A DNA stretch of 64,000 nt from the NCBI GenBank assembly GCA_964510385.1, contig CAZECA010000001.1, forward strand, positions 17,340 to 81,339, written 5' to 3'. Each line of letters starts with the position of its first letter. The stretch's first letter is position 1. This DNA comes from an uncultured bacterium (lineage in GTDB: Bacteria; Fidelibacterota; Marinisomatia; Marinisomatales; TCS55). The notes under the pieces were generated by a model. It was not told where the DNA came from. It was given only the letters and a program-made list of their open reading frames with translations, and did no database searches. Below, in pieces: positions 33,584-46,343 of the stretch. The translations under genes were made by a program, and so were the position numbers.

Positions 33584-35812
33584 ATGTTTGCTGATATTGT
33601 ATTTCCCATCTCAAGCTATGTGCAATTCACATATAAAATTCCAGATGAATTGACAGAAGAAATCCAAATTGGATCACGCGTCAAAGCTCCACTTGGCAAT
33701 CGAAAAGTCATTGGAATTGTAACATCAAAACGTAAGCAATCCCGTTTTAAGGGGAAGCACAAGTCTGTGATTGAATTAATCGATTCTAATCCGGTGATGG
33801 ATGCATCTTTGTGGTCTCTTGCTCAGTGGATGAGTAAGTATTATTTTACCCCACTGGGTCAAGTAGCTAAAACAATACTGCCATCCAAGCTATCATCAAA
33901 ATATCAACCCCCCACTACTGCTATGGTTTCATTTAAACGGTTTGGTGAATCTTACTCCAATATGGAAAAACGAGCACCTGCTCAAGCGAAAATTCTAGAA
34001 TTTTTACACCTACAGAAAGGATCCGTTCCTGTATCTTCGTTGAATAAGATTGTCAGCAATCCCAATGTCATTTGCCGATCTTTATTTGAAAAGGATCTAG
34101 TTGATTTAAATGAAACAATACGTTTTCCAGATGTAACCGGTTTTACTTTTTCGCCCATAGATAAGGAGATTTATTTTACTAAAGAACAAAAAACAGTTCT
34201 TAATGGAATGATAAAAAAATTAAACGATGAAACGTTCAGTCCATCACTACTACATGGAGTAACTGGAAGCGGTAAAACAGAAATATACATAGAATTGGTT
34301 CGTCAGGCGTTACAACAGGGGAAAACAGCGATTCTGCTACTCCCAGAGATTTCATTGACACCTCAAATTGCAGGACGATTCAGAGCGGTTTTTGGTGAAT
34401 CGGTTGCCTTATGGCACTCCAAACTTTCCCAGTCGGCCCGCTCTTGGACATGGAAACAGATGTGTAATGGTCGCATCAAAGTGGCCATAGGAGCACGTAG
34501 TGCCGTATTTGCACCTATGAAGAATCTGGGGGTTATTATTATAGATGAAGAACAAGAGCATTCATTCAAGCAGGAATCACCTGCGCCAAGGTACCATGCA
34601 AGAGACGTTGCGCTTGTGAGGGGGAAATTAAATAATGCATTAGTTGTTTTGTCTAGCGCTACACCCGGCCTGGAAACCTATTATAATTATATTAAGGGTA
34701 AGTATGATTATTACCGATTGGAAAAAAGATATAGCGGAGAACCATATCCCCGTGTTTATGTCGTGGATATGATAAATGAACAAGAAGAAACTGGAAAATA
34801 TCAGCAGATCATTTCAAGTGTTTTGCAAAAGAAAATGGAAAATTGTTTTGCAAAAGGCGAGCAGGTCATTCTTCTACAAAACAGAAGAGGATATGCGCCC
34901 ATTTTTCGTTGTGGTGATTGCGGTTATGTTGCAACCTGTAATGATTGTGAGGTCTCTCTTACCTATCACAGCTATAATAAGACATTAAAATGTCATTTTT
35001 GTGGTTTTCAAACAAAAGAAATTTCAGTTGCATGCACCAGTTGTAACAGTATAAATATGAAATTACTGGGAGTGGGAACCCAGAAGGTGGAAGATGTATT
35101 ACATGAACATTTTCCGGATATTATTACTGCGCGATTAGATCAGGATTCAAGTAAAGATGCCAAAAAGCTAACTCGTATTTTAGAGGAATTTGGCAATGGA
35201 AATATCCATGTATTAATCGGGACTCAAATGATCGCTAAGGGATTGGATTTTGAAAACGTAACACTTGTAGGGGTAATCAATGGCGATACTGGATTATTTT
35301 TGCCAGATTTCAGATCTGGAGAGCGCGGGTTCCAATTGATTTATCAAGCTGCCGGAAGATCGGGACGCACAAAAAAAGGCGAAGTAGTGATCCAAACTTA
35401 TAATGTGGAAAACCCTGTATTAAAACATGCTGCAAAGCTTGAACAAAAGGCCTATTACAATATATCCCTAAGCGAGCGAGAGGCTTTGAATTATCCCCCC
35501 TTTTCTTGGATGATACGTATAGAGACCATGGGTAGTAAAAGAGATAACGTAAAGGAACATGCGGAAAAAATTATAAAAATACTGGGGCAACCTCCCAGGG
35601 GTATTGAAATTTTAGGCCCGGCATTTTGTTATCGGGAACGCTTACGTGGTAAATATCGTATGCATATCATGTTAAGATCCAATAAAAAGCAAGACCACAG
35701 AGGGGAAAAAGTGCACAGGTTTTTGCGAGACCGATTTAAAAAAGGGTTTATTGTAAAATCTCCATCAGGACTCAATACATTTATCGATGTCAATCCAGTA
35801 TCTGTACTATGA
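33584..35812 (+). CDS. priA: Primosomal protein N' (replication restart helicase)
   Basis: GVTGSGKTE, LLPEISLTPQ, IDEEQE, SATP, NRRGY, zinc motifs CGDC, CNDC, CHFC, CTSC, GTQMIAKG, QAAGRSGR. Confidence 0.97.
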   Translation: MFADIVFPISSYVQFTYKIPDELTEEIQIGSRVKAPLGNRKVIGIVTSKRKQSRFKGKHKSVIELIDSNPVMDASLWSLAQWMSKYYFTPLGQVAKTILPSKLSSKYQPPTTAMVSFKRFGESYSNMEKRAPAQAKILEFLHLQKGSVPVSSLNKIVSNPNVICRSLFEKDLVDLNETIRFPDVTGFTFSPIDKEIYFTKEQKTVLNGMIKKLNDETFSPSLLHGVTGSGKTEIYIELVRQALQQGKTAILLLPEISLTPQIAGRFRAVFGESVALWHSKLSQSARSWTWKQMCNGRIKVAIGARSAVFAPMKNLGVIIIDEEQEHSFKQESPAPRYHARDVALVRGKLNNALVVLSSATPGLETYYNYIKGKYDYYRLEKRYSGEPYPRVYVVDMINEQEETGKYQQIISSVLQKKMENCFAKGEQVILLQNRRGYAPIFRCGDCGYVATCNDCEVSLTYHSYNKTLKCHFCGFQTKEISVACTSCNSINMKLLGVGTQKVEDVLHEHFPDIITARLDQDSSKDAKKLTRILEEFGNGNIHVLIGTQMIAKGLDFENVTLVGVINGDTGLFLPDFRSGERGFQLIYQAAGRSGRTKKGEVVIQTYNVENPVLKHAAKLEQKAYYNISLSEREALNYPPFSWMIRIETMGSKRDNVKEHAEKIIKILGQPPRGIEILGPAFCYRERLRGKYRMHIMLRSNKKQDHRGEKVHRFLRDRFKKGFIVKSPSGLNTFIDVNPVSVL

Positions 35813-36708
35813 AGAAATTAATCTGTTCCAGCATTATTTTTACCTGGTTGACTGGAGCATCCTTTATGGGGATGGATCACTGGTATCACCCCCATCAAAT
35901 TTCTTTATCAGGAGCAGGCGGAACATTTAATAATGTATCTTCAGATATTTCAAACCCAGCTGGTTTATGGAGCCTCCCCAGGTCTTTTAATGTGGGCGTT
36001 GTTTCTTATCCGGCAGATATAATTACACAGTCTGCACATTTATCCCTTCCAGGAAATGAAGCGGTGACAGTATATGGAATTCGACATCTAAATTATGGAT
36101 TGTTTGAAGGAAAAAATGATGTTAATGAAAAAACATCAGATTTTTATGCATCCGATACATGGTTTAGCTGGGCAGCTGCAGGACATTCTTCTAATTGGCC
36201 TTTGTTGTGGGGAGTGAGCGTCGGATTATTTTATAGTTCTATAGAGCACAAAGAAGCCATCGCGATTACCTATTCAGTAGGCAGCATTCTGGTTTTAGAA
36301 AAACTAGATGCAAAATTGGGAATTGCCATAATGAACGGAGGAACAGTAATAAAAAAATATACCTCTTTCCAAGAGGATCTACCCACAGTTCTATTGATTT
36401 CATTTGCAAAGGAATTGGAATACCTACCCCTGACGCTTTCAGCAGATGTTTTCAATCGTTTTAATGACGATAAAATCGACGTCAAACTTGGCGGTCTCTT
36501 CGATCTGCCAAATAATATAAAATTGAAATTTGGGACATCATCTAACAGGGTTAAACAATCTGTAGAAAAGAACTTCTCAAAAGATTTATTGGCGGATACG
36601 GGTTTTGGAATTGGTTGGGAGTATGAAAATTACCATTTTGAAACAGGATTTTATTCCTATGGCCCTGGCGGTTGGATGTCGGGGTTGTCGGTTGGTATTC
36701 AGTTTTAG
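35809..36708 (+). CDS. PorV/PorQ/FadL-like outer-membrane beta-barrel protein
   Basis: Signal peptide; SLSGAGG...DISNPAGL N-terminal hatch motif; amphipathic strands; terminal SVGIQF. Confidence 0.65.
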   Translation: MKKLICSSIIFTWLTGASFMGMDHWYHPHQISLSGAGGTFNNVSSDISNPAGLWSLPRSFNVGVVSYPADIITQSAHLSLPGNEAVTVYGIRHLNYGLFEGKNDVNEKTSDFYASDTWFSWAAAGHSSNWPLLWGVSVGLFYSSIEHKEAIAITYSVGSILVLEKLDAKLGIAIMNGGTVIKKYTSFQEDLPTVLLISFAKELEYLPLTLSADVFNRFNDDKIDVKLGGLFDLPNNIKLKFGTSSNRVKQSVEKNFSKDLLADTGFGIGWEYENYHFETGFYSYGPGGWMSGLSVGIQF

Positions 36709-36711
36709 ACC

Positions 36712-39471
36712 GTGATTAAACAATATGCAGTTTTCTGCCTTGGGATCATGATTTCCCCATGGTTTATATATTCTCAAGGGTTAGATGTTTCCTATGAACT
36801 GGATCTATATTTTTATCCCGACTCATCAAATTCATCTGGTAAAATTTCAGGTGTGAACCATGTTTTAGTTATCAATAATTCTCATCAAGAGCTTCGTGAA
36901 TTATATTTTCATATCGCTGGGAATAATCCCTTTCTTGACAAACCGCATACAACTATTAAGCAAGTGAGAACATCTCATGGCGGCCGTGTAGCTGGAAGTG
37001 ATAGTTTAGTCATGCGGGTGGGGCTGTTCCCGCCATTACAAAAGGGAGAGAAGGCTCTGGTTGATATTGAGTTTGAAACTGAGTTTTCCATAATAATTGA
37101 TGCCGGAATTGCCACCGCAGGCTCAAAAAAAGATACAACTGTCTATAATGGGATTAATTTTTATCCTGTTTTAGAATATTTCTATCCGGATGGCTGGCGC
37201 GTGGATGAATATGGAAAGACCGCCAAACCATACAGCGCTTTCGCATCCTATTTTGTGACATTAACCATCCCTAAACAATTTCAAATATCTTCATCCTCTA
37301 AGGTCGACGAATCAAAAGAATTGGATACGGGACATGTGGAATACGTGATTAAGGATGAAATGACGCGTAGTGTCTCTGTGGCCATTTATGATAACTTGAA
37401 AAAATCAACGTTTAATATAAACGGTCGAAAAGTAGAAATAGCATTTCCTCCTGGAAAGGCGAAACAAGCGGAAGAAATAAAAGATCGCTTATATAAGCTG
37501 ATTCCTTTTTACGAATCCCAGTTCGGCAATGCTTTGATGGACAAGCTGGTGATTGTGAACGGTTATTCAATAGGGGCTCAGGCCATATCGAACAGTAATT
37601 ATCTAATTATTCAGGATGGCAATTATGTTAATCACCTGCTTGATCATGAGATTGCCCACCAATGGTTTGATTATTCGATTTTTCCAAATGAGCCAGAAAT
37701 ATCGTGGATGAATGAATCCTTAGCAGAATATGCAAGCTCGTTGTTTGAACAAACTCTATTTAAAAAACCAGACCCATTTACGTTTACTCAACCTATCCCA
37801 GATATTGGAGTTTGGGAGCAGGTTAAGGCCATGGATATGGAAGACTGGGCCCGGACGTTAATGGAAATAATTGGAGACAGATCCCTCCCCCCCACATATG
37901 ATCCGGGTAAGCAAATTGGCTGGGAATCTGTTGAAACTATCTATTCAAAGTATATTTCTGGAAGACACGCCCTGCAAATGCTTCAGATATCAATAGGCGA
38001 TACGATCATGAGCCAGATAATGAAAGATTATTATTTACATTTCAAAGGTAAATCTGCTAGTCCTAAAGATTTTATTCAAACAGTAAGAAAATTTACAAAT
38101 GAAAATGAAGCTGAAAATTTTCGTTTAGCTTTAACAACTAATTTATCTTCCGATATGATTATAGATAAGGTAAAAAGTGTTCAGACTCAAAATGGTCATT
38201 GGACCCATTCAATTTTTACAAGTGTTGAAGGACAATGGATTTTGCCTGTGGATGTGATGATTGTTTCCGAAATGAACGATACAACAATTAAAGAAAATCA
38301 AAATATCGTGAACTCATCTGTGATCGAAATACAAACAAAAGATCAAATGAGGAGTACAGTGCTAGACCCCTATAAACGATTGTTTGATTCTAATCGATTA
38401 AACAATCGCTGGCCAAGACAAATCTCGTTAAGGCCTGACTATGGACTGCCAAGTTGGGAAGCCTATAAGGTTTATTATAGGCCAAGACTCAAACGAGATT
38501 GGAGAGGCAACTGGAGGACAGGTATGAAATTGTCGGGCGGTATCGGCATAAATATGATGCCAATAAGACCGGCCTTTTATCAAAATCAATTTGATTTAGA
38601 GATTACATTTTCAACGGGTATTCCGCAATATAATTGGGGTGGGAAAATAAATTATCGGTCTCCATTGCGTTCCACTGTAAACACATACTGGGAATTTGAA
38701 TATGGTTATGAATACCCCAAGAAATGGTCAAAGGTATCGTTCAATAATTACATTGGAGAACCTAAATATCTGGCTGTACATGGGGAATCACACTACTCCC
38801 GCATAACTACGACATTTTCTAGCAACGAATACGTTGTGGCCGAAGTAGATGGATGGTGGTCAGAAGGTTTAAGTATAACACTTAAAGAAAAATGGACAAT
38901 CTTTTCTTATAAACCAAGCCAGCGTTATTTGATTGAAACACATTTAATCTGTGGTTTTCAAGAGGATGACACCTTTTATAATTTTGGATTGGCCACAGAT
39001 TTTGAGACGCATAATATTGCCAATTATATCGTTCGTATTCATGGAGAGGCGGGATTTGCTTGGGATGAACGTGAGGGGAATGAATTAGCCTTTCGTTTGT
39101 TGTACACACCTAAAGTCTGGCAAACTATTCAAGGGCGGGTTCCATTATTTCGAGGAGTGTCAGAAGAAGAAAAGAAATGGCATGATAATATTGCTAGTTT
39201 CGGATTAAGTGTCGGTTGGGAAACATCTGGGCCTGTTTGGCCTATGGTATATATTGATGCAGCTAAAGCACATGATTTTAATGGGACACTAATAGAAAGG
39301 ATCGATAGTTTTTCAAAAGAAGAAAAAACTTTTATATCTGCTGGCATTGGAATCGAATCCCAAACTTTGATGGAGATCGGTTTATATTTTCCTCTGTGGG
39401 TCTCACACCCCGTACGAGGCGAAAGTAAATTTGCTTTGCGCACACTGCTCCAGTGGGGGTTTTACTTTTAA
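36712..39471 (+). CDS. M1-family zinc metallopeptidase with C-terminal beta-barrel-like domain
   Basis: HEIAHQWF then WMNESLAEY (HExxH-x18-E); C-terminal third rich in amphipathic strands, ending LQWGFYF. Confidence 0.8.
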   Translation: MIKQYAVFCLGIMISPWFIYSQGLDVSYELDLYFYPDSSNSSGKISGVNHVLVINNSHQELRELYFHIAGNNPFLDKPHTTIKQVRTSHGGRVAGSDSLVMRVGLFPPLQKGEKALVDIEFETEFSIIIDAGIATAGSKKDTTVYNGINFYPVLEYFYPDGWRVDEYGKTAKPYSAFASYFVTLTIPKQFQISSSSKVDESKELDTGHVEYVIKDEMTRSVSVAIYDNLKKSTFNINGRKVEIAFPPGKAKQAEEIKDRLYKLIPFYESQFGNALMDKLVIVNGYSIGAQAISNSNYLIIQDGNYVNHLLDHEIAHQWFDYSIFPNEPEISWMNESLAEYASSLFEQTLFKKPDPFTFTQPIPDIGVWEQVKAMDMEDWARTLMEIIGDRSLPPTYDPGKQIGWESVETIYSKYISGRHALQMLQISIGDTIMSQIMKDYYLHFKGKSASPKDFIQTVRKFTNENEAENFRLALTTNLSSDMIIDKVKSVQTQNGHWTHSIFTSVEGQWILPVDVMIVSEMNDTTIKENQNIVNSSVIEIQTKDQMRSTVLDPYKRLFDSNRLNNRWPRQISLRPDYGLPSWEAYKVYYRPRLKRDWRGNWRTGMKLSGGIGINMMPIRPAFYQNQFDLEITFSTGIPQYNWGGKINYRSPLRSTVNTYWEFEYGYEYPKKWSKVSFNNYIGEPKYLAVHGESHYSRITTTFSSNEYVVAEVDGWWSEGLSITLKEKWTIFSYKPSQRYLIETHLICGFQEDDTFYNFGLATDFETHNIANYIVRIHGEAGFAWDEREGNELAFRLLYTPKVWQTIQGRVPLFRGVSEEEKKWHDNIASFGLSVGWETSGPVWPMVYIDAAKAHDFNGTLIERIDSFSKEEKTFISAGIGIESQTLMEIGLYFPLWVSHPVRGESKFALRTLLQWGFYF

Positions 39472-39528
39472 TAATACGTCGCGAATTCCTTAATATTTAA
39501 GTATATTTATTAATATTACTAAAATATT

Positions 39529-39563
39529 AATGAAATTATAAATTATACGTAATAATTTCATTA
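39529..39563. promoter_or_regulatory. Perfect 12-bp inverted repeat (candidate operator) upstream of the Lrp/AsnC gene
   Basis: TAATGAAATTAT-N11-ATAATTTCATTA; TATAAT at 39538-39543 overlaps it; ends 2 nt before the ATG. Confidence 0.5.
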
Positions 39564-39565
39564 TT

Positions 39566-40027
39566 ATGTTTGATGATAAAGATTACCAGATTCTTTCAGC
39601 TCTTCAGTCCAATTCACGTACTACGGCCAGCGATATTGCAGAATCAGTAGAGATGTCCATACCAGCTGTTGCAGAGCGGATCAAGAAACTGACCGAGAAT
39701 GGAGCAATTGAGTCATTTACTGCAAAACTGGATGGAAAACAGCTGGGGTTTGATCTAGCTGCTTTCATTGCGGTGGTAAGTGCATCATCAGAGCATTATG
39801 AAAAAATAATAAAGAAAGCGATTTCGCACCCTTCAGTTATGGAATGCCATTCTGTCACCGGTGATGGGAGCCATATGTTAAAAGTTAGAGTTAGAAACTC
39901 CTCTGAATTAGAAAAACTACTGCGAGTGATCCAATCCTGGCCGGGGATTATTAGAACCCATACATCTGTCATTATGAGTACCTATAAAGAAGGTTTTGAT
40001 TTGGATCTTTCATCAATACACACATAA
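39566..40027 (+). CDS. Lrp/AsnC family transcriptional regulator
   Basis: DDKDYQILSALQSNSR HTH, ERIKKLTENGAI, ECHSVTGDGSHMLKV, RTHTSVIM. Confidence 0.93.
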   Translation: MFDDKDYQILSALQSNSRTTASDIAESVEMSIPAVAERIKKLTENGAIESFTAKLDGKQLGFDLAAFIAVVSASSEHYEKIIKKAISHPSVMECHSVTGDGSHMLKVRVRNSSELEKLLRVIQSWPGIIRTHTSVIMSTYKEGFDLDLSSIHT

Positions 40028-40042
40028 ACCAAAGGAAAAACT

Positions 40043-41053
40043 ATGGAAAAAATAAAAGCAGAATATATTTGGATAGATGGACACAGGCCCACCTCTAAGC
40101 TACGATCGAAAACAAAAGTTATTGATGCCCCCGTTACAAGTCTGGATCAAATACCTTTATGGGGGTTTGATGGATCCAGTACTATGCAGGCAGGGGGTGG
40201 TGACAGTGACTGTATGCTAAAACCGGTCAAATTCATTCCGGACCCAATCCGGGGCGGGGATGATATTCTGGTCATGTGTGAAGTTCGACTACCTGATGGT
40301 TCTGTGCATGAATCTAATACAAGAGCTCATTTAGTCAAGATCGCAGAAAAATATAAGGATCATGATCCATGGTTTGGCATTGAACAGGAATATACATTCT
40401 TTGTTGGCAGGTCCCCACTGGGGTGGCCGGAAGGCGGCTATCCAGCCCCTCAAGGGCCCTTTTATTGTGGTGTGGGTGCAGATGAAGTCTTTGGCCGGGA
40501 TATTGTTGAGGAGCATATGGAAGCCTGTATAGTAGCCGGAATTGAAATTTCTGGAATCAATGCGGAGGTGATGCCTGGGCAGTGGGAATTTCAGGTAGGC
40601 CCCGTAGGAGCAATAGAAGCCGGTGACCAGCTTTGGTTGGCCAGATGGCTTTTATATCGGATTGCTGAAGATTATGATGTAAATGCCACGCTTCATCCTA
40701 AACCCGTAACCGGTGACTGGAATGGTGCAGGAGCCCACACAAACTTCAGTACAAAATCTATGAGAGAGAATGGGGGAATGAAAGTGATTGAAGCTGCCTG
40801 CGAAGCACTTAGTAAAAAACATGAAGATCATATTGCTGTTTATGGAGCTCATAACGAAGAAAGGCTCACCGGCCTCCACGAAACATGTTCAATTCATGAA
40901 TTCAGGTATGGAGTCAGTGACAGAGGAGCATCGATTCGTATTCCAATGCAGACCGCCAATGATGGCCATGGGTATTTAGAGGATCGAAGACCTTCTGCCA
41001 ATATGGATCCTTATCAGGTGTGCGCAGCATTGTTAGAGACCTGCTGCTCATAG
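40043..41053 (+). CDS. glnII: Glutamine synthetase type II (eukaryote-like GSII)
   Basis: 336 aa; AEYIWIDG, LRSKT, WGFDGSST, WFGIEQEY, QGPFYCGVG, NAEVMPGQWEFQVG, GDWNGAGAHTNFST, RLTGLHET, RGASIRIP, YLEDRRPSANMDPY. Confidence 0.93.
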   Translation: MEKIKAEYIWIDGHRPTSKLRSKTKVIDAPVTSLDQIPLWGFDGSSTMQAGGGDSDCMLKPVKFIPDPIRGGDDILVMCEVRLPDGSVHESNTRAHLVKIAEKYKDHDPWFGIEQEYTFFVGRSPLGWPEGGYPAPQGPFYCGVGADEVFGRDIVEEHMEACIVAGIEISGINAEVMPGQWEFQVGPVGAIEAGDQLWLARWLLYRIAEDYDVNATLHPKPVTGDWNGAGAHTNFSTKSMRENGGMKVIEAACEALSKKHEDHIAVYGAHNEERLTGLHETCSIHEFRYGVSDRGASIRIPMQTANDGHGYLEDRRPSANMDPYQVCAALLETCCS

Positions 41054-41075
41054 CAAATTCTACTTGTCAACCTCT

Positions 41076-41103
41076 CAATGCCTTCATAAATATGGGGGCA
41101 TTG
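41076..41103 (+). terminator. Hairpin downstream of glnII, possible terminator or processing site
   Basis: CAATGCCTTCAT-AAAT-ATGGGGGCATTG 12-bp stem with two G-U pairs; weak U tract. Confidence 0.4.
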
Positions 41104-41154
41104 GTGTTTATAGAACTTGTATAATTATATCTTTCTGGTTATTGTCCCAGTCCT

Positions 41155-42522
41155 ATGAACAAACATATTATTATAGTATCATTTTTATTGTTCATTTTCA
41201 TTGGCTGTGATGAAGAACCGGAAAATGAAGAGATAGTAGTAACATCCGCAGGACGAGATAGTTGGGAGATCATTCAAGAGAATATTTTTGCAGAAAACTG
41301 CGTGGAGTGTCATACTGCAGGAACATCGTTTGCAAATCAATCCAACCTGGTTTTGACGCCTGATGTTGCCTACGAACAATTAATACACCAGCCTGTCGAT
41401 AATCAAGGAGCAATTGAAGATGGATTAGAGCGCATAGGTACAGATGGTTTGAGTAGCTTATATAAAAGCTTTCTCTGGGAAAAGATAAATGCTCCTGATA
41501 AAGAGCATTTTTATGGGGATCATCCTCAATATGGATCTCTAATGCCATTGGGCATGCCGTATTTAACAAATGGTCAATTAGAATTTGTGCGCCAATGGAT
41601 TATTGCAGGGGCTCCGGAAACAGGTGCTGTTGCAGATACAGCCTTACTGGCAGATACTCTGCGCTTTGAAGATGTGGAATTCACTCAGCCCACACCACCG
41701 GAAAATGGATTTCAGATCCATTTAGGCCCATTTGAAATTCTTCCTAACTATGAACGTGAATTTCTTTATTTGACCGAACTGGATACCACGGGAGACCTGT
41801 ATGTAAACCAGGTGGAGATCACCATGAGGCCTGGGAGCCACCATTTTATCTTGTATACGTTTGATAACCGGATGCCGGATATTCTTAACCCTGAACCAAA
41901 TACGTATCGGGACCTTCGTGATGTTAATGGGCAATATATCACTGATAATATGGTCGCCATGTTTTATCATGAATTTTTTGCGGGGACACAATGGCCGTAT
42001 ATTAACCGTTCGTTTCCTCAAGGGATGGGGTTGAAGGTGCAAGCAGATGAGGGCCTGGATTTGAATTCACATTATATCAATCGTACCGATGAAACCAACA
42101 TCGGCGAAGTGTTCGTTAACATTCATTTAGTCACTCCAGATGAGATTGAAAAAGTTGTAAATGTATTACAATGGAATCATAATGATTTTGTCCTCCCTGC
42201 AAATGAAATAACAACCCTTGAAAAAATATTTTATGCAGAAGAACGGATGCATATCATACAACTATTCTCGCACGCTCATGAGCATAATCTGGAATTTTCA
42301 GTTGAAATAGTTGGCGGTGAACGCCATGGTGAATTAGTCTATATTTCATATGATTGGGAACACCCCCCTATCCTTGAATTAGATCCCCCTTTGGTATTGG
42401 AAGAAGGAGAAGGATTGAAACTGATCGCCACCTATGATAACTGGACCTCTGAAGACTTGACTTTTGGATTGTTGAGCGAAGATGAAATGATGATTTTATT
42501 CGGCTATTTTTATACTGATTAA
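41155..42522 (+). CDS. Lipoprotein: c-type cytochrome domain fused to copper type II (PHM/DBH-like) monooxygenase domain
   Basis: Lipobox FIFIG-C; CVECH heme motif, GSLMPLG and FVRQWIIAGAP; copper ligands GSHHFILY, LNSHY, FSHAHE, EDEMM. Confidence 0.75.
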   Translation: MNKHIIIVSFLLFIFIGCDEEPENEEIVVTSAGRDSWEIIQENIFAENCVECHTAGTSFANQSNLVLTPDVAYEQLIHQPVDNQGAIEDGLERIGTDGLSSLYKSFLWEKINAPDKEHFYGDHPQYGSLMPLGMPYLTNGQLEFVRQWIIAGAPETGAVADTALLADTLRFEDVEFTQPTPPENGFQIHLGPFEILPNYEREFLYLTELDTTGDLYVNQVEITMRPGSHHFILYTFDNRMPDILNPEPNTYRDLRDVNGQYITDNMVAMFYHEFFAGTQWPYINRSFPQGMGLKVQADEGLDLNSHYINRTDETNIGEVFVNIHLVTPDEIEKVVNVLQWNHNDFVLPANEITTLEKIFYAEERMHIIQLFSHAHEHNLEFSVEIVGGERHGELVYISYDWEHPPILELDPPLVLEEGEGLKLIATYDNWTSEDLTFGLLSEDEMMILFGYFYTD

Positions 42523-43752
42523 ATGTTCTATTCAGTCCCATTTTATATATGCAGAATTCTGTTCTGCGTATTGTTAATATCTACAACTTTTTCCCAAAAT
42601 ACATACCCAATAGTACTGGTCCATGGATTTATGGGCTGGGGAGAAGATGAAATGGCGGGCTATAATTATTGGGGCGGAAAAAGTGACATTGTTACCCATT
42701 TAAGAGACGCGGGTTACGAAGTCCATGAGGCTTCAGTAGGCCCGGTATCATCAAATTGGGATAGGGCTGTTGAATTATTTTACCAGATCAAAGGAGGCCA
42801 GGTAAACTATGGGCAAAGTCATTCAAATGAATATGGTATTCTTCAAGCACCTCCCAATAAAATATATCCCGGTTTATATCCCCAATGGAACGAAGACCAC
42901 CCTATTCATATCATTGGCCACAGTATGGGTGGTCAGACAGCACGCATGTTGAATTATTTGTTAAATGAAATCATTTACATAGACCAAGATGAATTGTATC
43001 CAGAGACAACTGATCTGTTAGGGAATGTCCATGATGGATGGATCAGGTCTATAACAACTATTTCAGCGCCGCACAATGGGACTACGCTTTCCGACATCAT
43101 TACCAAAGGTATTCCCTTTTTACAAGACGTAATTGGACTAGCAGCGGTAGTTGGAAATGATTTTTATGATTTTGATCTTCAGCAATGGGGCTTTGAGAAA
43201 CAAATAGATGAGACCTGGCCCTCATATTTCAGACGAATGAGAGAGCATCAGGCTTGGGGAACTCGGAATATGTGTGCGTGGGACGTAAGTATTGAGGGAG
43301 CGAGAGAGCTAAATACATTATCACCAGCTGACCCCAACATATTCTATTTCTCTTTCAGCACATCAAATACCCGTTTAGACACTGTAAGCGGGTATCATGT
43401 GCCTGATAAAACAATGAGTTTGATTCTTCGAGCTAATGCTCGAATAATGGGACGAAATAAGGCCTACTGGTATGATGGAAAGGCGACTGATTCAACATGG
43501 TTTGAAAACGATGGTATCGTTAATACTATTTCTCAATATGGTCCGACAACAGGATTAGACGGCTCGGACCCTATAGCCGAGTATCGAAAAGGAGAATTAC
43601 TCATACCGGGTCAATGGTATCATATAAAAACCTATTTTGTTGATCACAGGATTTTGATTGGTCATGGAGCCAATGATGTCCAGTCAGCAAACATGATAAC
43701 TCTTTTTGAAGATCACGCAAAGTTATTATGGTCTATACCAGCCAGTGAGTAA
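42523..43752 (+). CDS. Secreted lipase (family I.5/I.6, Geobacillus/Staphylococcus type)
   Basis: Signal-like N-terminus; YPIVLVHGFMGWG, VGPVSSNWDRAVELFYQIKGGQVNYG, IGHSMGGQTAR, PHNGT, ENDGIVN, VDH. Confidence 0.9.
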   Translation: MFYSVPFYICRILFCVLLISTTFSQNTYPIVLVHGFMGWGEDEMAGYNYWGGKSDIVTHLRDAGYEVHEASVGPVSSNWDRAVELFYQIKGGQVNYGQSHSNEYGILQAPPNKIYPGLYPQWNEDHPIHIIGHSMGGQTARMLNYLLNEIIYIDQDELYPETTDLLGNVHDGWIRSITTISAPHNGTTLSDIITKGIPFLQDVIGLAAVVGNDFYDFDLQQWGFEKQIDETWPSYFRRMREHQAWGTRNMCAWDVSIEGARELNTLSPADPNIFYFSFSTSNTRLDTVSGYHVPDKTMSLILRANARIMGRNKAYWYDGKATDSTWFENDGIVNTISQYGPTTGLDGSDPIAEYRKGELLIPGQWYHIKTYFVDHRILIGHGANDVQSANMITLFEDHAKLLWSIPASE

Positions 43753-43760
43753 GTTAAGGC

Positions 43761-44090
43761 ATGGTTACAATAGATGAATTCAAAAAAGTAGATTTACGCA
43801 TTGGTACCATTATTGAAATTGAAGATTTTCCGGAAGCGAAAAATTCTGCATATAAACTGAAAATCAATTTTGGTGGATTTGGTATAAAACAGTCCAGTGC
43901 AAAAATAACAGATTTATACAATAAAAAAGACCTGATAAATCGTCAGATCGTGGCCGTTGTCAATTTCCCAACAAAAAAAGTAGCAAATTATAATTCTGAA
44001 GTATTGGTTCTTGGAGCAGATAGTCAGTATGGAGGAATTATATTACTTGAAATAGAAAAACCGATGCAAAATGGATTAAAGGTCAGTTAG
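43761..44090 (+). CDS. csaA: tRNA-binding protein / secretion chaperone CsaA
   Basis: FKKVDLRIGTI, AYKLKINFG, VVNFP, SEVLVLG. Confidence 0.88.
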   Translation: MVTIDEFKKVDLRIGTIIEIEDFPEAKNSAYKLKINFGGFGIKQSSAKITDLYNKKDLINRQIVAVVNFPTKKVANYNSEVLVLGADSQYGGIILLEIEKPMQNGLKVS

Positions 44091-44092
44091 TA

Positions 44093-44129
44093 TTGTCACA
44101 TATCATAAATATTTGTAATATACAAATAT
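44093..44129 (+). promoter_or_regulatory. Sigma70 promoter with overlapping palindromic MarR operator; predicted leaderless transcript
   Basis: TTGTCA (44093-44098)-N17-TAATAT (44116-44121); perfect inverted repeat ATATTTGTA-ATA-TACAAATAT (44109-44129) covers the -10 box and the ATG at 44128. Confidence 0.75.
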
Positions 44130-44562
44130 GGAATTTGGCGAATTATTAAAATTATTTCTTCTGGATCTTCAAAACCTTTTCCGGTCACGTATAGCCTCTA
44201 ATGAACTAACTCTCCCTCAAATTTTATTGATTTCATGTATACCAGATAACGGTATTGATATGACTTCTCTGTCAAATCGGCTTGGAGTCGACAATAGTAC
44301 ACTTACTCGTGTTGTAGATAATCTATTTAAAAAAGGAAGTGTCAAACGGGAGAAGAATGTACATGATAAACGGATCACAATCTTGAAATTAACAGCTTCT
44401 GGAATTAAGCTCCAGGAATTGATCGAAAAAAACATTGACCATTTTGGTGAGCATATATACAATTCTATTTCTATTGAAGACAGAGATGAAGTAAAGGAAG
44501 TCCTATCTAATTTTCACTGGACACTATCAAAAATTTTAATGAAAAATGAGAAATTTGTATAA
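44128..44562 (+). CDS. MarR family transcriptional regulator
   Basis: 144 aa; LTLPQ, LSNRLGVDNSTLTRVVDNLFKKGSV, DKRITILKLTASG. Confidence 0.92.
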   Translation: MEFGELLKLFLLDLQNLFRSRIASNELTLPQILLISCIPDNGIDMTSLSNRLGVDNSTLTRVVDNLFKKGSVKREKNVHDKRITILKLTASGIKLQELIEKNIDHFGEHIYNSISIEDRDEVKEVLSNFHWTLSKILMKNEKFV

Positions 44563-45625
44563 TACAAGAAATATATCTAATTCTTTGATAGAATGGTACA
44601 GCAACAATAAAAGAGATCTTCCTTGGAGAAAATCTAAAAATATTTATTCAGTCTGGCTATCTGAAATCATGCTGCAACAAACTCAAGTAGATACAGTCAA
44701 ACCTTTTTATAACAACTGGATCAATCAATATCCATCTATAGCTAGTGTTGCAAAAACAAACGAAGAAAATCTTTTAAAAATATGGGAAGGATTAGGATAT
44801 TATAATAGATGTAGAAATTTTCATAAAGCATCAAGATTAGTAATGGACAATTATAATGGTAACATACCAATAGTACATAGTGATTTTATCAAACTACCAG
44901 GGGTGGGTCCATATATATCTGCGGCAGTTCTTTCAATCTCTAAAGGAAAACCACTACCCGCTGTTGACGTAAATATTAAAAGAGTTCTTTCAAGAATATT
45001 AAGATTAAAAAAAGATTCAAAACGAAATCTAAAATATATGCTCAGCACTATTGAAAAGTGGATGAAGCATAATAATCCAGGAGATATTAACGAAGCATTA
45101 ATGGATCTTGGTGCAACAGTGTGCAGGCCTAACCAGGCGCAGTGTCATATTTGTCCTCTGTCAAAAAATTGTAATGGTTATCTTTCGGGAAATCCTGAGA
45201 AGTATCCTCAGAAAGTTATAAAAAAATCAATACCCCATTTTTCAGTTGTTACTTGTTTACTATGGAGAGATGATCGTTTTTTAATAATGAAACGAGATAA
45301 GAAAAATCATCTTGGTGGTTTGTGGGAGTTCCCTGGGGGAAAGATCAAGGAGAATGAACAAATGGATTATGCTTTGAGGAGAGAATTAAAAGAAGAGTGT
45401 GGTATATCAATTAATATTGGTAAAAAAATCGGTAAGGTTAAACATAAATACAGTCATTTTTCCATTGACCTTTATGCATATCACTGTACAACAAAAAATG
45501 GGTCCAGCATTAAAACAGATCAGCCATATTTATGGGTTGAACCAGAGGATATAGATCAATATCCTTTTCCTAAAGCAAACCACAAACTCTTCGATATATT
45601 AGATAGGCAGGAATGGAATGTATAG
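44546..45625 (+). CDS. mutY: A/G-specific adenine DNA glycosylase with C-terminal Nudix domain
   Basis: RDLPWR, WLSEIMLQQTQ, WEGLGYYNR, LPGVGPY, VDVNIKRV, ALMDLGATVC, [4Fe-4S] motif C-x6-C-x2-C-x5-C. Confidence 0.95.
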   Translation: MRNLYNTRNISNSLIEWYSNNKRDLPWRKSKNIYSVWLSEIMLQQTQVDTVKPFYNNWINQYPSIASVAKTNEENLLKIWEGLGYYNRCRNFHKASRLVMDNYNGNIPIVHSDFIKLPGVGPYISAAVLSISKGKPLPAVDVNIKRVLSRILRLKKDSKRNLKYMLSTIEKWMKHNNPGDINEALMDLGATVCRPNQAQCHICPLSKNCNGYLSGNPEKYPQKVIKKSIPHFSVVTCLLWRDDRFLIMKRDKKNHLGGLWEFPGGKIKENEQMDYALRRELKEECGISINIGKKIGKVKHKYSHFSIDLYAYHCTTKNGSSIKTDQPYLWVEPEDIDQYPFPKANHKLFDILDRQEWNV

Positions 45626-46343
45626 GACAATCGTTTCCATAATTTTATGGCCAATAGCTTTTATAGTTTTTGTAATCGGAGCATTATTTTATGCGTTCTT
45701 AACTTATTTTATACCACCGACCCGTTTATATCTAGTTGCCCAGACTGTTTGTAGATCTATGTTGTTAGCAGGCGGACAATGGTTGCGGATTGAGGGTAGC
45801 ATTCCCACTAAAGAAGGTCAACCATATTTATATTTATTCAATCACGAGTCACTTATGGATCCCTTTATGCTGGGTGGAGCTATTGACCATTATGTTACAG
45901 CAGTGGGCGCTGAATATCAGTTTTCATACCCCGTATGGGGAATGCTTGCCCGCAGGCATGGAGCAATCCCGATCAAACGTAAACAGTTAAAAAATGCTAT
46001 TCACAGTTTGAGCAAGGCTGAGGAGGCGATAAAAAGTGGGATCTCTTTCATCATATCACCTGAGGGTACGCGAACCGTATCCGGTGAAATGGGAGAGTTC
46101 AAAAAAGGCCCATTTCATGTGGCATTGAATACGGGTGTTACCATTGTCCCCGTAGCATTGAAGGGGGCATATGCGGCCAAGAAAAAGACAGATTGGCGCC
46201 TGTCTCCCGGTTTTCTCACTATTCGATTTGGTAAGCCAATTAATTCGCAAGAGTACAATAATTTGGACCTCCACGCCTTACAAGTATTAGTGAGGGGAAA
46301 AATTCAAGATTTAATTGATCATAAAAAAGGAGACAAACCATGA
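45618..46343 (+). CDS. plsC: 1-acyl-sn-glycerol-3-phosphate acyltransferase (PlsC family)
   Basis: NHESLMD, SPEGTRT, FKKGPF, IVPVAL. Confidence 0.85.
   Translation: MYRTIVSIILWPIAFIVFVIGALFYAFLTYFIPPTRLYLVAQTVCRSMLLAGGQWLRIEGSIPTKEGQPYLYLFNHESLMDPFMLGGAIDHYVTAVGAEYQFSYPVWGMLARRHGAIPIKRKQLKNAIHSLSKAEEAIKSGISFIISPEGTRTVSGEMGEFKKGPFHVALNTGVTIVPVALKGAYAAKKKTDWRLSPGFLTIRFGKPINSQEYNNLDLHALQVLVRGKIQDLIDHKKGDKP

Follow-up and report, generated by a model that had tools for sequence, protein, structure and literature searches.

The window analysed here is a stretch of 64,000 nucleotides (nt) of contig CAZECA010000001.1 (assembly GCA_964510385.1), from an uncultured bacterium of the order Marinisomatales. 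Its positions 41155 to 43752 hold two separate co-directional open reading frames (ORFs) on the forward strand, and not a single gene. The first, at 41155-42522, encodes a 455-aa putative lipoprotein that combines a predicted c-type haem domain with a two-copper monooxygenase core like that of peptidylglycine alpha-hydroxylating monooxygenase (PHM); it is called the oxygenase below, and is the subject of this report. The second, at 42523-43752, encodes a secreted triacylglycerol lipase of 409 aa, a neighbour gene outside the enzyme, and its ATG directly follows the TAA stop of the oxygenase (42520-42522), leaving zero gap at the junction (TAAATG). The oxygenase protein begins with MNKHIIIVSFLLFIFIGC, where Cys18 closes a hydrophobic stretch, and it has three cysteines in total, namely Cys18 in a lipobox-like motif and the two in a CVECH haem motif. 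A lipoprotein signal, the CVECH motif, a methionine in GSLMP, candidates for all six copper ligands and the gapless start of the lipase had been listed in an earlier note made from the letters of this DNA, and every one of these was correct on re-reading the ORFs. The genome of the bacterium is represented by a 1.62-Mb assembly, about 90% complete, in which the oxygenase gene occurs once.

The catalytic core of the oxygenase, composed of two beta-sandwich subdomains, occupies residues ~181-455 (41695-42519), and was assigned by profile and structure comparison. A profile built from 48 relatives matched rat PHM (E = 4.5e-9) and human dopamine beta-hydroxylase (DBH; E = 1.3e-6) among PDB sequences, and its alignment to PHM brought all six copper ligands into register. 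For the CuH site, H229-H230 in GSHH (41839-41844) correspond to PHM H107/H108, with 'gsHHfil' aligned on 'TVHHMLL', and H306 in NSHY (42070-42072) corresponds to H172, with 'NsHy' on 'QVHY'. For the CuM site, the counterparts of H242/H244 are H373 and H375, separated by an alanine in SHAHEH (42271-42279; 'SHtH' on 'VHTH'), and that of M314 is M445 in DEMM (42487-42489; 'seDEMm' on 'SSDEMC'). When the members were scanned singly, 42 of 48 matched the Cu2_monoox_C family (E <= 0.1; best 3.5e-12), and several exceeded its cut-off. An AlphaFold2 (AF2) model of the oxygenase, built on 25 sequences, had a pLDDT of 82 and a pTM of 0.75. In a Foldseek search with this model, every one of the top 31 PDB matches was to PHM or to DBH (E = 2e-14 to 5e-10, target TM-score 0.55-0.67), the best values being E = 2e-14 with a TM-score of 0.62-0.67 for PHM and E = 1e-13 for DBH, at an identity to PHM of 14-18%. 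Because of the register of the profile alignment, the Cu2_monoox_C matches and the Foldseek ranking of the model, the core truly belongs, as a distant member, to the PHM/DBH superfamily (Pfam PF01082 and PF03712), and the PHM/DBH-type two-copper core that the earlier note had read from the ligand motifs is borne out. From this homology we infer that the oxygenase binds two copper ions and carries out O2-driven hydroxylation of C-H bonds.

By a word-seeded search we obtained at least 1,197 relatives, the best 120 of them 51-82% identical to the oxygenase over nearly the full length; among representatives clustered at 50% identity, which were searched exhaustively, 1,577 had E <= 0.001. Carriers of the family belong to Marinimicrobia, Cytophagales, Gemmatimonadota, Latescibacterota, Poribacteria and others, and include the cultivable Ekhidna lutea DSM 19307 (locus L019). 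Conservation was followed in two sets, one of 25 close relatives and one of 48 diverse relatives with identity down to 25%. All 25 close relatives keep C49, C52, H53, M130, P131, H229, H230, H306, H373, H375 and M445. In the diverse set, H229, H230, H306 and H375 are present in 48 of 48 members, and H373 and M445 in 47 each. Those of the 48 that bear the N-terminal domain all have the two cysteines and the histidine of the haem motif as well as Pro131, and all but one, which has Cys at that position, keep Met130. Judged from these alignments, the conserved haem and copper motifs are not due to chance. In one distant relative (P0183, 510 aa), Tyr and Val replace the CuM ligands H373 and M445, with the haem motif and the CuH histidines kept, and this protein may be a degenerate or repurposed member. 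Some public records of the family are automatically annotated as 'Copper type II ascorbate-dependent monooxygenase, C-terminal domain'. In the literature searched we found no paper on bacterial haem-fused PHM-like enzymes or on this family, and the earlier note had likewise known of no characterised enzyme with this combination of haem and two copper sites. The oxygenase family is real, widespread and uncharacterised, and it is attractive for its mechanism.

The N-terminal domain (N-domain) covers residues 31-175 (41245-41679), and is supported by an AF2 model, weak profile matches and homologues encoded as separate genes. Its model is all-helical, with a pLDDT of 88.7 and a pTM of 0.86. It contains the CVECH motif for covalent haem attachment (C49, C52 and H53 in residues 49-53; 41299-41313) and Met130 in YGSLMPLG (41542-41544), which is a candidate for the sixth haem ligand. 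In 66 fused representatives with a complete core, the haem motif is CX2CH in 31, CX3CH in 8 and CX4CH in 27; three spacings at one position represent an unusual plasticity for a c-type haem site. Pfam matches of the N-domain among the 48 diverse members were to PSCyt1 in 8 (best E = 0.0047), to the fatty-acid cis/trans isomerase family CTI in 6 and to Cytochrome_CBB3 in 5, all below the curated cut-offs, and the oxygenase itself matched CTI at residues 116-159 (E = 0.008), also under the cut-off. The similarity to the haem regions of CTI (PF06934) and PSCyt1 (PF07635) is weak, and the oxygenase lacks the remaining ~600 aa of CTI. A narrower profile of the N-domain, run against the PDB, returned just cytochrome c6, at E = 0.9. 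The genome of the bacterium has the means for cytochrome c maturation, since contig 12 carries CcmF- and CcmC-like frames (661 aa and 221 aa) that score above the PF01578 cut-off. Binding of haem by the N-domain is likely on the strength of its conserved motif, and the conservation of Met130 is suggestive of His/Met ligation. The cytochrome c-type domain with a plausible Met ligand described in the earlier note is therefore backed by the conserved motif and Met130, together with the CcmF/CcmC-like genes.

The haem and copper modules also occur apart. Among the representatives with a complete core, about 14 are stand-alone copper cores of ~312 aa, which have all six ligands and no N-domain, compared to the 66 that are fused. 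The contigs of five stand-alone representatives were examined, and four of them had upstream sequence. At three of these four loci the directly upstream gene lies on the same strand as the core and encodes a protein of 133-162 aa homologous to the N-domain of the window (L091:3-404, L093:318-806 and L094:2523-2996; blastp E = 5e-24, 3e-17 and 1e-17), and at the fourth (L090) no adjacent haem-domain gene was found. These separate haem proteins carry a CX4CH motif (C-x-x-S-G-C-H) and the methionine of MPLG; the two complete ones are lipoproteins, and that of L091 is cut by the contig end. New here are the separate haem-domain genes immediately upstream of stand-alone cores. Because the same modules are found either fused or as adjacent genes (the Rosetta-stone pattern), we take them to be functionally coupled, and this pattern is the strongest support in our data for a haem domain that serves the copper core. 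In addition, the linker between them (residues 155-182) is conserved and was modelled with a pLDDT of 79-90, which fits a fixed docking of the two domains rather than a loose tether. A built-in electron relay had been suggested in the earlier note for the fused protein, and the separate haem genes upstream of stand-alone cores give independent support to it. It is plausible that the putative copper monooxygenase does not depend on ascorbate.

Downstream of the stand-alone cores is the gene for a conserved ~200-aa protein (L091:1542-2138, L093:1779-2426 and L095:1117-1716), with an aromatic C-terminus in 2 of 3, which is possibly an outer-membrane barrel. Next in L091 is a gene of the copper-binding MbnP family (2205-2813). 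The stand-alone loci may thus be a small split operon of a haem protein, a copper core and a possible outer-membrane protein.

The oxygenase gene begins with a signal peptide (41155-41208) that ends in a lipobox-like F-I-G-C and is followed by the acidic stretch DEEPENEE. This N-terminus, MNKHIIIVSFLLFIFIG-C18, has Phe and not Leu at position -3 of the lipobox, and was recognised by eye. The neighbourhoods of the family were surveyed at 80 loci, with one genome per species and four genes on each side, and a lipobox-like motif was found in about 48 of the 80 with a crude regular expression. The Cys that ends the hydrophobic region recurs in most homologues without the C-terminal tail of the type IX secretion system (T9SS). 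Other branches, which have no such Cys, have a T9SS sorting domain at the C-terminus (13 of the 48 diverse members) or FG-GAP, Ig-like and PD40 modules. The family is judged extracytoplasmic from the signal peptide and lipobox of the oxygenase, and from relatives with T9SS tails or FG-GAP, Ig and PD40 modules. Part of it certainly crosses the outer membrane, and anchoring of the oxygenase itself at the cell surface, though putative, is plausible. Long relatives have additional domains (T9SS tail, FG-GAP, Ig-like, PD40, DUF4214 and DUF5648), which were also considered as a clue to the substrate, and rejected as such, since they point to location instead.

We propose, with a probability of about 0.7, that the oxygenase is an exported and lipid-anchored enzyme with a c-type haem and a PHM fold, in which electrons are relayed from the haem to CuH and then to CuM, and which acts independently of the lipase, on a substrate other than the C-terminal glycine carboxylates of PHM. 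The proposal starts from the observed homology, fold and ligand conservation, from the split and fused forms, and from the distribution of the family over taxa and syntenic loci; the loading with haem and copper, the donor and direction of the electrons, the monooxygenase chemistry and the cellular location are its predicted parts. A single c-type haem would be attached to C49 and C52 of the N-domain, with His53 and Met130 as axial ligands, and the N-domain would pack via the conserved linker onto the PHM/DBH-fold core. The core would hold two mononuclear copper sites, CuH at H229, H230 and H306, and CuM at H373, H375 and M445. A periplasmic or external donor would deliver electrons one at a time to the haem, which would pass them on to CuH, the site that is reduced by ascorbate in animal PHM and DBH. 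Electron transfer from CuH to CuM would follow, O2 would be activated at CuM, and a C-H bond of the substrate would be hydroxylated. The adjacent lipase would have no part in this reaction.

Several results weigh against this proposal. As a single sequence, the oxygenase passed no curated Pfam or NCBIfam threshold: it scored 12.8 bits against Cu2_monoox_C, for which the cut-off is 23, had no match to Cu2_monooxygen, and matched no cytochrome family over the Pfam cut-off. A single-sequence phmmer search of the PDB gave noise only. The homology was thus revealed only by profiles and structure. With the oxygenase itself below threshold and 42 of the 48 members matching, we consider it to be from a distant branch that curated Pfam models cover only in part. 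The search against copper and cytochrome profiles that the earlier note had recommended therefore had a divided outcome, in favour of the copper core for the family at large, and under all curated cut-offs, those of cytochrome families included, for the oxygenase itself. The isolated N-domain model had no significant Foldseek match to a solved cytochrome in the PDB, and matches of the family profile to c-type domains were weak there (FoxE, E = 0.0025; hydrazine synthase alpha, E = 0.0028), so that haem binding rests on the conservation of the motif. The survey of 80 loci showed no partner gene common to the family, and none that points to a substrate. Also, we know of no respiratory donor outside the outer membrane, where T9SS-secreted relatives would act.

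Other explanations of the same protein were weighed against these results. A true PHM orthologue, which hydroxylates the alpha carbon of peptidylglycines or N-acylglycines and uses haem in place of ascorbate, would have the fold, all six ligands and a Met ligand within DEM in common with the oxygenase, and the earlier note had suggested N-acylglycines and Gly-extended peptides as substrates. However, identity to PHM is only 14-18%, and the residues that would hold such a substrate differ. In the PHM-substrate structure 1OPM, R240 and Y318 hold the glycine carboxylate and N316 the backbone. The positions aligned with R240, N316 and Y318 by the HMM are F371, I447 and F449 in the oxygenase, and F/T/S/V, I/L/V/F and F/Y/I, respectively, in the 48 relatives, which never have Arg or Asn there. 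With the anchors replaced by mainly hydrophobic residues, the PHM-type peptidylglycine/N-acylglycine site is not conserved, and since these anchors fail, the oxygenase is not PHM proper (EC 1.14.17.3). Moreover, PHM has several disulfides, whereas the oxygenase has no Cys beyond the lipobox and the haem motif, and no gene for a PAL-like lyase was linked to the family in the 80 loci. We therefore regard a PHM orthologue as very improbable, and the idea of glycine-ended substrates as weakened. The pocket looks hydrophobic from its aligned residues, and an uncharged or hydrophobic substrate is more likely than a C-terminal glycine carboxylate. It is also conceivable, but in our view quite improbable, that the haem is catalytic or a sensor rather than a relay, or that we are dealing not with a hydroxylase but with a copper/haem oxidase or peroxygenase. 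A sensor or catalytic haem has been proposed for fatty-acid cis/trans isomerase, to which residues 116-159 are weakly similar; T9SS-secreted members have no known electron donor, and peroxide-driven chemistry is known from other copper oxygenases, the lytic polysaccharide monooxygenases (LPMOs). The CTI match, however, is below the curated cut-off, a six-coordinate His/Met haem, as predicted here, would be typical of electron carriers, and the stand-alone cores keep their six copper ligands next to a separate haem gene, as expected of a redox partner.

The position of the lipase gene suggests yet another explanation, that oxygenase and lipase work as a unit at the cell surface, with one enzyme acting on the acyl or lipid products of the other. 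Such cooperation, on lipid or acyl-amide substrates, had been put forward as possible in the earlier note. In its favour, the stop and start codons abut. The lipase follows the oxygenase in 11 of the 80 loci, taken as Marinimicrobia (nine are so labelled and two have no phylum label), with gaps of 0-50 nt and 54-73% identity, and some of these have different upstream neighbours. The hydrophobic residues at the PHM anchor positions, and the weak CTI matches of the N-domain (E = 0.008 for the oxygenase, and 6 of the 48 members), would also suit a lipid-related role. In contrast, the other 69 loci, across phyla, have no lipase near the oxygenase. Among the 81 genomes of the window's order that we surveyed, the lipase is present in 61 and the oxygenase in 21. 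The two genes are adjacent in 5 of 5 oxygenase carriers of the window's family (f1), the window's genome included, and are never neighbours in the 10 other genomes with both, where they lie on different contigs; six genomes carry the oxygenase without the lipase. Adjacency in the order, which bears on the co-occurrence that the earlier note had proposed to check, is thus confined to a single family. Across this family we observed a long, co-directional syntenic array, p299-M1 peptidase-Lrp-GlnII-[slot]-lipase-CsaA-MarR-MutY, where p299 is a 299-aa protein ending in Phe and individual genes are missing in some genomes (window 35809-46343, compared with L084-L089). Four genomes of the family without the oxygenase keep the lipase in the array after GlnII; in three of them it directly follows GlnII, and in the fourth (G065) the slot is taken by a sulfotransferase-like gene on the opposite strand (L086:5409-6188). 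Because the array persists without the oxygenase, the abutting start codon is the outcome of gene insertion or loss at a variable slot of a compact, syntenic genome. The housekeeping genes for GlnII, CsaA, MarR and MutY are equally syntenic, yet functionally unrelated. A joint surface unit is accordingly a doubtful explanation, which we rate as highly unlikely, and the lipase seems to owe its place beside the oxygenase to conserved gene order and not to partnership.

The lipase itself is of the Geobacillus/Staphylococcus type, as it matches Lip_C (PF24708; E = 5.8e-65) and PDB entry 5ah1 (E = 8e-77), and its alignment with 5ah1 includes the GHSMGG nucleophile elbow, NDG and DH. In several relatives the lipase frame has in-frame stops (G058, G021, G006, G046, G034, G039, G063 and G075), and in G075 it consists of three fragments with many stops; pseudogenes or assembly errors are possible causes. 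Just upstream of the oxygenase is a eukaryote-like type II glutamine synthetase gene (40043-41053; NCBIfam GlnII equivalog, E = 3e-168), preceded by a gene for an Lrp/AsnC regulator. A terminator-like hairpin on the forward strand, with a 13-pair stem and a T-rich tail, is located 22 nt past the glnII stop (41075-41104), and suggests that the oxygenase gene begins a new transcription unit. It was found by a consensus scan only, and the counts of promoter and terminator sites in the region were not above those in shuffled sequence, so the hairpin is a mere hint. Since there is such a hairpin after glnII and none before the lipase, the oxygenase and lipase are predicted to be co-transcribed in this genome, which we consider likely.

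Frequent neighbours in the 80 loci were considered as clues to the substrate, and all were rejected: Amidohydro_2 (12 loci), an ABC ATPase, the lipase (11), the 299-aa protein ending in Phe, LTXXQ, SDR and GPP34. The 299-aa protein is unannotated, and is possibly located in the outer membrane. Amidohydro_2 (PF04909) is encoded on the same strand before the oxygenase in 12 loci of Latescibacterota and Gemmatimonadota, often together with an LTXXQ-motif periplasmic protein, and is the sole neighbour seen across phyla. It is gene -1 in L060, L066, L067, L069, L071, L072, L074 and L077, and is among genes -2 to -4 in L027, L028, L031 and L036.

Compared to known systems, the oxygenase is closest in its core to PHM, the catalytic core of PAM (PDB 1PHM, 1OPM, 1SDW and 3MIC), with the same two beta-sandwich subdomains, the same HH...H and HxH...M ligands and the DEM motif. 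It differs from PHM in having no disulfides and no PAL domain, in its replaced substrate anchors and in its low identity (14-18%), and also in being a bacterial lipoprotein with an N-terminal c-type haem domain, whereas PHM receives its electrons from ascorbate. DBH, tyramine beta-hydroxylase and MOXD1 (PDB 4ZEL) share the copper core, and DBH too has an extra N-terminal module. DBH, however, carries a DOMON domain as that module, besides a domain for dimerisation, while the module of the oxygenase is a helical domain with CxxCH. Nothing in the data points to a phenylethylamine substrate of the oxygenase. In cytochrome c-tethered copper nitrite reductases, such as NirK of Ralstonia pickettii, a fused mono-haem c is a built-in donor to the electron-accepting copper. 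The likeness to these enzymes is an analogy in the principle of electron supply, while tethered NirK is a cupredoxin trimer that reduces nitrite and has a C-terminal class I haem domain, and the fold of the oxygenase is unrelated to it. The cytochrome domain of cellobiose dehydrogenase (CDH) feeds LPMOs, and cytochrome b561/CYBDOM supplies DBH and PHM through ascorbate. In these systems, as proposed here, a haem protein gives single electrons to a secreted copper oxygenase, but they use haem b, separate proteins or other membranes, and other folds, whereas here the haem module is covalently joined or encoded by an adjacent gene.

PHM and DBH are the textbook two-copper enzymes. The route of their electrons to CuH and across to CuM is a matter of debate, and almost all work on them has dealt with the ascorbate-driven forms of animals. 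In a compact natural form from bacteria that is free of disulfides and brings along a haem donor, electron entry could be triggered and timed, and such a system would be tractable by spectroscopy. The family would, moreover, give the PHM/DBH fold a large prokaryotic branch whose electron supply differs. The oxygenase gene has been retained in a streamlined genome, numerous abundant marine lineages have it too, in many cases with a secretion tail, and O2-dependent oxidation at the surfaces of marine heterotrophs may be common. One wider reading is that the family consists of ascorbate-free copper monooxygenases with a fused or adjacently encoded haem c donor, exported as lipoproteins or by T9SS, with which marine FCB-group bacteria would oxidise uncharged or hydrophobic substrates (lipids, for example, or recalcitrant dissolved organic matter) at the surface of the cell or outside it; we regard this as speculative and rather unlikely. 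To our knowledge, marine FCB-group bacteria are largely without LPMOs. If the surface-oxidation reading is true, the family would be a functional counterpart of the CDH/LPMO system on a PHM fold.

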